From positions 611,888 to 635,887 of the forward strand of contig OZ257241.1 in NCBI GenBank assembly GCA_965279445.1: a stretch of 24,000 nucleotides of DNA, read 5' to 3'. The DNA comes from Roseivirga sp. Its GTDB lineage: Bacteria; Bacteroidota; Bacteroidia; Cytophagales; Cyclobacteriaceae. Below, piece after piece: positions 12,274-14,175 of this stretch. The position numbers and the translations under genes are program-made. Every line of letters starts with the position of its first letter. Positions within the stretch are counted from its first letter, which is position 1. The notes below the pieces were generated by a model. That model did no database searches and was not told the DNA's origin. It was given only the letters and a program-made list of their open reading frames with translations.

Positions 12274-14175
12274 TCACTCAGGTTTTTTGCTGCGCTCGAT
12301 TTCTATGGCCTGCGCCAGATCTTTGGCAGCTATCATAATGTCACTTACCCCGGCACTGTCACCTGAGGCGCTCAGAATGGCATTTCTCACAATGTTGCTG
12401 ACTTGATGCGCATTGGCACCCAGTCCATTCACCAGTTGTTGCAGTTGCACTTTGCTATCGACTTTGACTCCCAGCTTTGTCATAATTTTTTGAAACAGCT
12501 GAAACTGGCTGGCCGGACTGAGAGGAGGGAAGCTTACCGTGATCATCGCCTGGTCTATGAGCGCCTGGTCCATGCTCAACCGTTGATGTGTAGTGAAAAT
12601 AGCCAGGACGGGATACTCCTGCAGTTTTTGCTTCAGCACAGTTTTAAGGGCTTGTTGCGCTGGTGGCTGAGTGTTTTTATCAAACAGCGTATCAGCATCA
12701 TCAAATAGCAGCAGTGCGGTGTTATTGGCAGCCTCCCTGAAAAGCAAATCGGTTACAGTTTCTGTATCTGAAGCTGTTGATATGAGTTTCAGGTAATCGA
12801 CCCGGTAAAGTGGCAGCCCCAGTTGATTGGCCAGGCACTCAGCGCAGGCCGTTTTACCGGAGCCTTTGGCTCCCTCCAGTAGCGCCAGCACTCCTGTGGT
12901 CTTACCTTCACTGATTTTTAGCCTGTTTTGAAAAGCCTTGCTTATTTGAGTCAGGCCCTTCTCTACTGAAGGGGCGAGGAACAATTCATCCGGGGTGAGA
13001 TCGCTTTTTTGTAGCGTAGCTACATTGGCAATCTGTAGGGGGCTCGTGGCCAGGTAGCCTTCCTGCACTGCCTTTGCATCGATCTGCTGATTGCTTTGAT
13101 GCGTTTGTGCGGCTCTCCTCAGAGTTGCTGACACCCTTTCAAAGTTCATGGTATAGGTAGTGGCCAGTGCATCATAGTTGATGGTTGCACTACTGAAAAG
13201 TTGTGTGCCTAATGCCTGCCATACCGTACTATTCTGGTTTGGTTTGAGCTCAGGTAAGGTGTATGCAGTAGCAGAGAATGAAGAAAGCACTGGAGGAAGA
13301 GGACTGAGCCGTCCCTGACTGGTAATCAGTAGTGTGTTATACAGAGCGAGCCATTTCTGCAGTACCTCGGGCAGGGCCGGGTTACTGTCAAATATGTTCT
13401 CTTCTAAAGGCCAGTACAGAATGCCCTGGTGGAGGGCCACGAATAATAATGCCTCTTTTAGTGACTCAGCCGGATTTTTTGAGTGCAGCAGCAGGTCAGT
13501 GTTGATTTGGTAAAGGGGCTGATGAAGGCTTGCTGCTGTTTTAAAAGCCAGGGCCTTTCTACGGGCCTCAAAGCTTCCTCCTAAATTGATGATGCGTGAA
13601 CCCTGTATCCGCGGTACTTCGTCAAAGGGCAGATCCAGAGCAGAGGTTTTGACAAGACTTACCAGACCTCCTTGCAGACTGTCCCGGGAAATGTTTCCGC
13701 CAAGGTAATCAACTATGGGTTGAGCAGCTGAAAGGGGAGTGTTTAAATAGGGAAGCCCTCCGGTATCCGCGTTTGGTATAAGCAATTGCCAATAAAACAG
13801 AGGGGAGTCTGCGTGAAGTTTACTGAGTAGCTGGTTTTTCTCTGAAAAGCTGGTGGTTACCAGATCAGTAACTACGCTCAGGCTGGCCCGGTCCTCCTTG
13901 ATGAGCCTGGAAAAAAAGCTATGCTGACGCGAATCGAGTACTGGCAGCGTTAGCAAAAGCAGTATTGCCAATTCTTGTTTTGAAAGGCCAAACTGCGTTG
14001 ATATTACCTGAGACTCAGTTGTGGTTCCAAGACCTTGAATAACCTGTGTGGTATTACTTACCCATTGCTCTACCCTCGTCTGAAGTTGATCAGACGAACC
14101 TCCGGAGTCTGTTTGCATCAAGGCAACTGTCTGCTCAGCCAGCCCGGAAATGGATATGATATCAGCGTTAGACAT
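12274..14175 (-). CDS. AAA+ ATPase with a ~400-aa N-terminal extension
   Basis: C-terminal AAA module with Walker A GAKGSGKT, Walker B ALLLFDDAD and sensor-like LAIFTTH. The N-terminal region (ELAILLLLTLPVLDSRQHSFFSRL...SPLFYWQLL...PIVDYLGG) recalls the N-domain of ATPases encoded in contractile-injection-system loci. That similarity is from recollection only. Confidence 0.85.
   Translation of the reverse strand: MSNADIISISGLAEQTVALMQTDSGGSSDQLQTRVEQWVSNTTQVIQGLGTTTESQVISTQFGLSKQELAILLLLTLPVLDSRQHSFFSRLIKEDRASLSVVTDLVTTSFSEKNQLLSKLHADSPLFYWQLLIPNADTGGLPYLNTPLSAAQPIVDYLGGNISRDSLQGGLVSLVKTSALDLPFDEVPRIQGSRIINLGGSFEARRKALAFKTAASLHQPLYQINTDLLLHSKNPAESLKEALLFVALHQGILYWPLEENIFDSNPALPEVLQKWLALYNTLLITSQGRLSPLPPVLSSFSATAYTLPELKPNQNSTVWQALGTQLFSSATINYDALATTYTMNFERVSATLRRAAQTHQSNQQIDAKAVQEGYLATSPLQIANVATLQKSDLTPDELFLAPSVEKGLTQISKAFQNRLKISEGKTTGVLALLEGAKGSGKTACAECLANQLGLPLYRVDYLKLISTASDTETVTDLLFREAANNTALLLFDDADTLFDKNTQPPAQQALKTVLKQKLQEYPVLAIFTTHQRLSMDQALIDQAMITVSFPPLSPASQFQLFQKIMTKLGVKVDSKVQLQQLVNGLGANAHQVSNIVRNAILSASGDSAGVSDIMIAAKDLAQAIEIERSKKPE

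Follow-up and report, generated by a model that had tools for sequence, protein, structure and literature searches.

In extracellular contractile injection systems (eCIS), the closest described relatives of the protein reported here are ATPases such as Pvc15, which is composed of an N-domain (residues 1-205), an inactive D1 domain (206-434) and an active D2 domain (435-698). The Pvc15 N-domain resembles transcription-factor folds; the protein stabilises payloads without the need of ATPase activity, and its Walker mutants still unfold signal-tagged proteins (PMC11495950). For R-bodies, RebA-C alone make the structures in E. coli, RebC is without homologues outside Caedibacter, and the conserved Reb partners reported in the survey of Raymann et al. 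2013 include neither an enzyme nor an ATPase (PMC3583457). The word 'ATPase' is also absent from the main text of the paper on the A. caulinodans reb operon (PMC5527310). Here we analyse a gene for a 633-amino-acid (aa) AAA+ protein that lies within a reb cluster on a stretch of DNA of 24 kilobases (kb) from contig OZ257241.1, which is called the window throughout. The sequences indicate that this ATPase is one of a small monophyletic group which branched off from the effector-loading ATPases of eCIS and was captured by a reb cluster of probably Bacteroidota type. We tentatively read it as an adaptor or chaperone that binds nucleotide, does not thread substrates and serves the proteins encoded beside it.

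The identity of the R-body toxin and its coupling to the ribbon have been an old question since the work on killer Paramecium. To our knowledge, R-body genes were earlier reported almost only in Proteobacteria. No paper tying R-bodies to eCIS-type ATPases, AAA proteins or DNase II was found in the literature, of which the coverage was incomplete, and this is absence of evidence only.

Kinship of the ATPase to Pvc15 and Afp15

The ATPase gene is an uninterrupted open reading frame with an ATG start (Table 1). A preliminary description made from the sequence had reported this reading frame with the motifs GAKGSGKT and LLLFDDAD, and the reading-frame map and our own reading of the sequence found both in place, at aa 435-442 and aa 488-495. 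Pfam searches detected PF00004 (AAA) at aa 432-546 (E-value 4.7e-13; 50.2 bits against a cutoff of 21.2) and PF22977, a winged-helix variant, at aa 58-165 (E-value 2e-8). It is not a chance reading frame: a full-length homologue with 41% identity is encoded in a syntenic contig, and about 20 other representative clusters exist.

A tblastn search against plasmids led to the afp-like cluster of Serratia marcescens pELP1.10, where the matching gene is flanked by those for the tape measure and Pvc16 and thus takes the place of Afp15/Pvc15. BLASTP joined the window protein to this ATPase in one colinear alignment covering aa 58-630 of the window protein (E-value 2e-24). The same pair of PF22977 and PF00004 was found by Pfam in the eCIS ATPases P0007, P0008 and P0010, and the nearest relatives without reb linkage adjoin Pvc16_N, sheath, gp19-tube, eCIS_core, base_V and gp25 genes, that is, they stand in eCIS loci. 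The likeness to eCIS ATPases that had been noticed in the preliminary description is therefore a true homology, and it is very probable that the protein belongs to the Pvc15/Afp15 family and is linked to reb genes. A housekeeping AAA identity of FtsH or CbbX type was considered and rejected: no FtsH or CbbX matches were obtained, the best relatives of the protein are eCIS ATPases, and its nearest structures are NVL, Rix7 and p97.

We modelled the protein with AlphaFold2 from a 13-sequence alignment (predicted local distance difference test score, pLDDT, 77.7). In Foldseek searches with this model, the best PDB matches were Rix7, NVL and p97, with about 510-530 aligned columns, E-values of about 1e-17 and template-modelling scores of 0.56-0.63. 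Because the model aligns with these tandem-AAA proteins over so many columns, aa ~191-400 are assigned to a degenerate AAA domain (D1). The P-loop position of D1 reads GGSFEARRKA and is without GK[ST], and BLASTP aligned this domain with D1 of the Serratia Afp15-like protein. The predicted fold thus has the layout of Pvc15, a winged-helix N-domain followed by a degenerate D1 and by D2. The earlier statement that about 400 aa of non-ATPase sequence precede the AAA module was half right: it stands for the N-domain (aa 1-190) and not for aa ~191-400, where the model and Foldseek predict an AAA fold. For the same reason the protein is not of the single-AAA kind with which it had been compared, since the N, D1 and D2 architecture is found both in the model with its Foldseek matches and in Pvc15 (PMC11495950).

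Loss of motor residues in D2

The D2 motifs were read from a phmmer alignment to NVL, a BLASTP alignment to the Serratia protein and a MAFFT alignment with 11 eCIS ATPases, which agreed with each other, and also from an alignment of the subfamily. The results showed that, of the residues needed for a competent D2, the window ATPase retains Walker A and the Asp of Walker B alone (Table 1). The motif LLLFDDAD, earlier called a Walker B, is present, but it is hhhhDD and not hhhhDE, and its catalytic Glu is gone. The residues of the second region of homology, which is typical of the PF00004 clade, are substituted compared with both NVL and the eCIS ATPases.

In AAA+ proteins, each such motif loss alone abolishes or severely cuts hydrolysis or substrate threading. 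Judged from its sequence, the window ATPase can probably still bind nucleotide, and it is likely that it is not a processive unfoldase. Because the pore loop, the Walker B Glu, the sensor-1 Asn, both Arg fingers and the sensor-2 Arg are all lost, the protein is probably a nucleotide-binding adaptor or chaperone instead, and of the two roles offered in the preliminary description, chaperone or unfoldase, the second does not agree with the state of D2.

Table 1. Features of the reb cluster in the window and of the ATPase, with positions in the window.
Feature	Position	Strand	Basis or remark
Basic membrane protein, 310 aa (p310)	7493-8425	-	isoelectric point 9.9; hydrophobic segments; 4-nucleotide overlap with the GH25 gene
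GH25 muramidase (glycoside hydrolase family 25), endolysin-like	8422-9198	-	Pfam E-value 6.6e-54; PHROG endolysin families; N-terminal hydrophobic anchor
DNase II-like protein (PF03265)	9211-10518	-	Pfam E-value 5.7e-70
487-aa protein (p487)	10543-12006	-	conserved N-terminus MRLFI[FY]N; helical C-terminal half
82-aa acidic, probably disordered protein (p82)	12024-12272	-	junction GAG TGA T ATG AAC; isoelectric point 4.05
Pvc15/Afp15-family type-II AAA+ protein, 633 aa	12274-14175	-	reading-frame map, Pfam, BLASTP, AlphaFold2 model, Foldseek
ATPase D2 AAA domain, aa 425-633	12277-12903	-	alignments to NVL, Serratia Afp15-like protein, 11 eCIS ATPases, subfamily
D2 sensor 2	within 12388-12405	-	eCIS Arg; window Ser
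D2 Arg fingers	within 12544-12564	-	eCIS RR; window DQ
D2 sensor 1	within 12583-12597	-	eCIS Asn; window His
D2 Walker B	12691-12714	-	eCIS hhhhDE; window hhhhDD
D2 pore loop	12760-12783	-	eCIS KY[IV]GETEK, without exception in those aligned; window ISTASDTE
D2 Walker A	12850-12873	-	eCIS GxxGxGK[ST]; window GAKGSGKT, intact
ATPase D1, degenerate AAA-like domain (predicted), aa ~191-400	12976-13605	-	beta-alpha-beta pattern in AlphaFold2 model; Foldseek; alignment to Serratia D1
ATPase N-domain, aa 1-190, including PF22977 at aa 58-165	13606-14175	-	Pfam E-value 2e-8; helical/winged-helix secondary structure in AlphaFold2 model
Coiled-coil, Q,A,T-rich protein, 224 aa (p224)	14197-14871	-	directly upstream of ATPase; conserved cassette member
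Six RebB paralogues, 85-89 aa each	15247-17141	-	PF11747 E-values 1.6e-31 and 9.7e-31 for two tested; the rest with the same sequence pattern
RebB-collagen fusion	17407-17958	-	Pfam RebB and Collagen; Gly-X-Y repeats; T/G/Q-rich tail
339-aa HP1.1-like protein (p339)	17962-18981	-	homologues in Azospirillum brasilense and Eleftheria terrae reb loci
110-aa HP1.2-like protein (p110)	19008-19340	-	homologues in A. brasilense and E. terrae, 64-66% identity
91-aa divergent Reb (Reb91)	19409-19684	-	homologues in A. brasilense and E. terrae
AraC-type regulator	19674-20510	-	Pfam

A monophyletic group of reb-linked ATPases

An exhaustive profile search with a hidden Markov model was performed over 1.84 billion representatives (50%-identity clusters of 15 billion proteins). 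Matches over the whole length, with 170-650 bits, were obtained for about 20 proteins (624-669 aa, or fragments), and the next in rank were eCIS-type proteins of 700-750 aa. At least 12 lineages, which differ by 60-75%, have full-length, uninterrupted reading frames of 624-643 aa. In a neighbour-joining tree of 52 sequences, the 12 full-length members without the pore loop formed one clade in 100/100 bootstraps, and this clade branched from within the ATPases of verified eCIS loci. Its immediate sister group has two members, and one of them, P0038, comes from a complete eCIS locus. In that locus (L012, 8480-12181), the gene of the Pvc15-like ATPase (726 aa) is preceded by another AAA gene (502 aa), and some eCIS therefore encode two AAA proteins; unlike there, no second AAA gene stands beside the reb-linked ATPases.

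The alignment of the subfamily showed that P0024 and P0029-P0034 retain every canonical motif, P0029 being encoded in an eCIS locus, and that the pore loop is absent from all other members, the whole reb-linked clade included. Within the clade, P0019, P0020, P0025 and P0027 retain DE, the sensor-1 Asn and RR, some or all of these are gone in P0014-P0018, P0002 and the window ATPase, and the Walker A lysine is gone in P0022, P0023, P0026 and P0035. This pattern indicates a stepwise decay of the catalytic residues across the clade. The N-domain, D1 and D2 are conserved to a similar extent, and the residues that are invariant in the clade are Trp, Tyr and TSP positions, none of which is catalytic.

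Other searches added little to this group. Scans of genome contigs, with the single protein and with a two-sequence alignment, returned only distant AAA proteins of Modicisalibacter and of a Clostridia metagenome-assembled genome. A scan of metagenome contigs gave no match, and a homologue search with the 24-sequence subfamily alignment gave nothing beyond the earlier matches.

A conserved reb-linked cassette

We looked up directly the genomic contexts of clade members among the representatives of the exhaustive search, and obtained 8 loci that cover all three subclades (Table 2). The preliminary description had set the ATPase inside an R-body cluster, and this linkage to reb genes was found in 9/9 loci (the window and 8 relatives), with L006 counted as truncated upstream yet consistent. 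RebB genes lie at most one gene upstream of the ATPase in the window and in 7/7 relatives for which upstream sequence is present (L001, L007, L008, L010, L011, L015 and L016). The order is fixed: the RebB array is followed by the coiled-coil protein, the ATPase, the small acidic protein, larger proteins and, where the contig reaches that far, a peptidoglycan hydrolase (window, L007, L008, L010 and L015). In some loci, toxin-like genes stand downstream of the ATPase, encoding a DNase II (window and L001), a TcdA/TcdB-type glucosyltransferase (L006) or a phospholipase D, PLD (L008). Genes for sheath, tube, baseplate, tape-measure and Pvc16 proteins were found neither in the 24-kb window nor in the 8 related reb-linked loci. 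Because both an eCIS operon context and a competent D2 are lacking, we describe the protein as a reb-linked, motor-degenerate branch of the family and not as an eCIS ATPase.

Table 2. Gene order in the relatives of the window locus; plain numbers are protein lengths in aa.
Locus	ATPase	Gene order
L001	P0002	RebB, 199, ATPase, 88 (acidic), 480, DNase II
L006	P0014	(contig cut) 129, ATPase, TcdA/TcdB-type glucosyltransferase, 72, 506
L007 (GCA_003171675.1)	P0015	AraC, Reb, 112, 338, 168, five RebB, 184, ATPase, 111, 453, 411, GH25, 306
L008	P0019	AraC ... eight Reb-size genes (7 with PF11747), 173, ATPase, 205, 169, 150, Rv2525c-like hydrolase, 201, PLD
L010	P0021	seven RebB, 149, ATPase, 68, 522, 390, GH108
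L011	P0023	RebB array, 99, 189, ATPase, 56, 439
L015	P0017	AraC ... RebB-collagen, six RebB, 181, ATPase, 147, 588, IS200, 125, GH25, 278
L016	P0022	RebB array, 251, ATPase, 433

The reb loci of Azospirillum brasilense and Eleftheria terrae carry homologues of p339, p110, the RebB-collagen fusion, Reb91 and the AraC gene. Annotation and tblastn detected no homologues of the ATPase, p82, p487 or p224 in the 25-kb reb loci of these two species. The ATPase is therefore not a general component of reb loci, although it was present in all 9 loci of the window type, and because proteobacterial loci with the other accessory genes do without it, we regard it as an add-on and not as a core factor of R-body assembly. 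The role in keeping Reb subunits competent for assembly that had been proposed at first is likewise unlikely to be an essential one, given these loci and the sufficiency of RebA-C in E. coli (PMC3583457).

Partner genes of the ATPase

The small acidic protein p82 contains 17 Asp and Glu residues against 3 Lys and Arg. The preliminary description had noted that its gene starts 1 nucleotide after the ATPase stop, and the junction TGA-T-ATG was read as such; from this spacing, p82 appears to be translationally coupled to the ATPase. The protein has an N-terminal motif MxLxD[IV]PIVxLI, a linker rich in Pro, Thr and Ser, and an acidic-hydrophobic C-terminus (DELFLTNFNPFDD), and this pattern is common across the subclades. 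Its positional homologues follow the ATPase with a spacing of 1-5 nucleotides or an overlap of 4 nucleotides in L001, L007, L010, L011 and L015, and the p82-type protein of L006 comes after the inserted toxin gene, where a TcdA/TcdB-type glucosyltransferase of 424 aa (2317-3591) has been placed between the ATPase and the small protein. The cluster genes further downstream, those of p487, the DNase II-like protein, the GH25 muramidase and p310, are spaced by 1-24 nucleotides or overlap by 4. In a scan for promoters and terminators, the junctions of p224, the ATPase and p82 showed no strong site resembling a terminator, and the totals differed from those of shuffled sequences by no more than about 1-2 standard deviations.

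In the window's own subclade, homologues of p224, p487, GH25 and p310 are clear. For p224, they occupy the same position in L001 (39% identity) and L007 (37%), with weak profile matches in L008 and L006, and counterparts by size and composition were seen in L010, L011, L015 and L016; the TTG start of p224 at 14871 is uncertain. The p487 protein has homologues in L001, L006 and L007 (28-29% identity, E-values from 1e-54 to 1e-61), and the 588-aa protein of L015 has a similar N-terminus. A protein homologue search with p487 returned itself alone, its single-sequence AlphaFold2 model was unusable (pLDDT 39.7), and p82, p224 and p487 gave no match in Pfam, NCBIfam, PHROGs or PADLOC. On inspection, no shared C- or N-terminal cargo tag was evident among the downstream proteins.

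In the DNase II-like protein, LSK (aa 93-95) and QSR (aa 277-279) take the place of the two catalytic HxK motifs, which are HTK and HAK in the DNase II of B. thailandensis (5I3E). Its DNase II domain starts at residue 4, too early for an N-terminal signal peptide to precede it, and a C-terminal tail of about 110 aa is rich in Pro and Gln. The L001 orthologue (55% identity) keeps both motifs (HCK and HSK), and the window copy is likely a pseudo-enzyme, as judged from these substitutions. The GH25 gene is conserved in L007 and L015, and p310, which has a homologue with 36% identity in L007, is a candidate holin-like partner of GH25. Together the two genes (7493-9198), with which the reb operon ends on its 3' side, resemble a lysis pair of the endolysin/holin kind. 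The Eleftheria reb locus also carries a glycoside-hydrolase gene, and other reb-linked loci have GH25, GH108 or Rv2525c-like genes.

The gene content 3' of the ATPase varies between loci, with toxin-like genes among it; the PLD of L008 (15646-16845) is a two-domain protein of 399 aa. In L015, an IS200-type Y1 transposase gene (14148-14882) lies between the gene of the 588-aa protein and the lysis genes, and the cassette is therefore open to disruption in some lineages. A DUF547 gene flanks the related module in L006, and a SusC-like TonB receptor gene adjoins the cluster of L015.

Upstream half of the cluster and its flanks

In the window, PF11747 also matched the two divergent Reb-like genes (the RebB-collagen fusion and Reb91). 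The listed reading frame of 133 aa at 16872-17273 on the minus strand is almost certainly an 89-aa RebB from the internal ATG at 17141 (MAYPTSVNDQ...). The upstream half of the cluster (17407-20510) fits the sizes and descriptions of HP1.1-HP1.4 of Group 1 reb loci (PMC3583457). The RebB-collagen fusion also occurs in L015 (6803-7312) and corresponds to the long Reb 'HP1.3' of proteobacterial loci. Regulators are encoded by the AraC gene in the window, L007, L008 and L015, and by a two-component system in L010.

No Shine-Dalgarno-like motif was seen upstream of the 19 minus-strand genes of the cluster (8425-20510), whose leaders are A-rich. A DUF1573 gene is a neighbour in the window, and two tandem DUF2461 paralogues (20911-21603 and 21657-22313, plus strand) adjoin the AraC end. 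The G+C content is 47-53% in the cluster (8000-18000) against 37-45% in the flanks, and a tRNA-Arg(TCT) gene (5482-5556, minus strand) lies about 2 kb past the 3' end. The G+C contrast and this tRNA gene suggest that the cluster is a horizontally acquired island.

Possible roles of the ATPase

A chaperone or cargo-handling role is plausible for the ATPase. The eCIS family loads or stabilises payloads with signal peptides for a contractile particle, and for the window protein the toxin-like genes nearby hint at such a task. We favour the reading that it has been co-opted to serve its cassette partners as an adaptor or chaperone which binds nucleotide but does not thread substrates, to which we give a rough probability of 0.4, because Pvc15 stabilises payloads independently of its ATPase activity, because variable toxin-like enzymes are encoded downstream, and because R-bodies form without such an ATPase elsewhere. 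The N-domain and D1 would bind the cassette partners (p82, p487 and the toxin-like enzymes), and the ATPase would keep these stable or attach them to the Reb ribbon during its assembly. The partners would then leave the cell together with the R-body once the lysis genes, endolysin-like and membrane protein, act. The role would be the R-body counterpart of the ATPase-independent payload stabilising of Pvc15 and would be dispensable for Reb polymerisation.

Several points weigh against the adaptor reading. All functional statements are computational, those on partner binding and on R-body cargo included. With four members that have intact DE, sensor 1 and RR (P0019, P0020, P0025 and P0027), some of the clade may depend on ATP hydrolysis, and the window copy may be a poor guide to the rest. 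The downstream proteins of subclades B and C (L010, L011 and L016) are without detectable homology to p487. The window DNase II-like protein is without both catalytic histidines, and the local module may therefore decay or serve something other than toxin delivery. Finally, that the hosts of these clusters are probably Bacteroidota is something we infer only from the missing Shine-Dalgarno motifs, the DUF1573 neighbour in the window and the SusC-like neighbour of L015.

A bolder form of the idea, which we hold to be possible but rather unlikely, makes the R-body a cargo device. The eCIS-derived adaptor and p82 would dock interchangeable toxins (DNase II, TcdB-type glucosyltransferase or PLD) on or in the Reb ribbon, and, once the producer has lysed and a protist has taken up the R-body, acid-triggered unrolling would deliver them across the phagosome membrane. 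If true, this would give the long-sought molecular link between R-body and toxin, and a part exchanged between two unrelated ballistic machines.

About as doubtful is that the ATPase is a morphogenesis factor which nucleates, orders or caps Reb polymerisation, as a functional analogue of the Caedibacter RebC, and acts on Reb subunits or on p224 instead of cargo. The gene stands one gene 3' of the RebB array wherever upstream sequence exists (the window and 7 relatives), the 5-8 RebB paralogues and the RebB-collagen fusion of these loci may need ordered assembly, and RebC has no homologues outside Caedibacter (PMC3583457). However, proteobacterial loci with homologous RebB, HP1.1-1.4 and AraC genes do without the ATPase, RebA-C alone give R-bodies in E. 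coli (PMC3583457), and the parent family is one of effector loaders and not of polymer assembly factors (PMC11495950).

It is improbable that the ATPase and its neighbours are only remnants of a former eCIS or toxin island that drift towards pseudogenes. Catalytic residues are missing from both the D2 motifs of the window ATPase and the HxK motifs of the DNase II-like protein, an IS200 transposase sits within the L015 cassette, and the catalytic motifs decay progressively over the clade. Decay of this kind does not fit with intact reading frames of 624-643 aa kept in at least 12 lineages so far diverged, with the maintained gene order, partners and tight coupling to the small reading frame, or with conservation that is even over the domains and includes clade-specific invariant Trp and TSP residues; the window also holds no eCIS structural genes or fragments.

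Still less likely is an active unfoldase or translocase, a hexamer that would use ATP hydrolysis in D2 to pull Reb subunits or payloads through its pore. In its favour, Walker A and the Asp of Walker B are retained, the AAA fold is common to threading machines, and some clade members keep DE, sensor 1 and RR, but KY[IV]GETEK is missing from every reb-linked member, the window copy is without its catalytic Glu, sensor-1 Asn, both Arg fingers and sensor-2 Arg, and four clade members are even without the Walker A Lys. The least probable is a regulatory or lysis-timing switch, in which the winged-helix N-domain binds DNA, or the ATPase gates the pair of endolysin and membrane protein, with nucleotide binding as the switch: the N-domain is a winged-helix variant, that of Pvc15 resembles transcription-factor folds (PMC11495950), and one tightly packed operon is common to the ATPase, GH25 and the membrane protein, yet eCIS loaders carry the same N-domain with no DNA-binding role known there, dedicated regulators are already encoded (AraC, or two-component in L010), and the distance and intervening genes up to the lysis genes differ between loci.

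A rare lineage of reb clusters has taken over that component of eCIS which alone is known for the choice and stabilising of payloads, and keeps it in a fixed cassette with toxin-like and lysis genes. The genes for the ATPase, the small acidic protein, p487, DNase II, the glucosyltransferase and PLD are candidates for the coupling of R-body and toxin. The clade is also an example of how an AAA+ motor can be kept, presumably as a binding module, after the loss of first its pore loop, then its catalytic residues and, in some members, even the lysine of the P-loop.

Comparison with known systems

The anti-phage ATPase IetA/IteA was considered and rejected as an identity, the NCBIfam IteA match being 29.7 bits against a curated cutoff of 510 (E-value 3.6e-7). 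This profile and that of PADLOC for IetA (E-value 2.5e-13) match weakly over D2 alone, no IetS/IteS partner lies beside the reb-linked ATPase, the N-terminal architecture is unlike, and the resemblance is only generic AAA similarity.

Compared with the type-II classical AAA proteins Rix7/NVL, p97/Cdc48 and Msm0858, the window ATPase has its best structural matches over both AAA domains, and NVL is the best PDB sequence match for D2 (E-value 1e-9). It differs from them in that the identity is only 13-18%, the N-domain is unlike, and the second region of homology and the pore-loop aromatic residue are missing; because it is without sensor 1, the Arg fingers and this aromatic residue, it is not expected to thread substrates. 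Like the known reb accessory proteins (Caedibacter RebC and RebD, and HP1.1-HP1.4 of Group 1), it is encoded in reb clusters and, as far as examined, restricted to genomes with reb genes, whereas it has no sequence relationship to any of these.

The closest system is Pvc15/Afp15, the ATPases of Photorhabdus PVC and Serratia Afp, with which the window ATPase shares full-length colinear homology, the succession of a winged-helix N-domain (PF22977), an inactive D1 and a D2, and adjoining toxin-like genes. In contrast to these proteins, it is about 70-100 aa shorter, it is linked to RebB arrays outside any eCIS locus, and it has lost the D2 motifs that are kept in the aligned eCIS ATPases and described as key in Pvc15 (PMC11495950).

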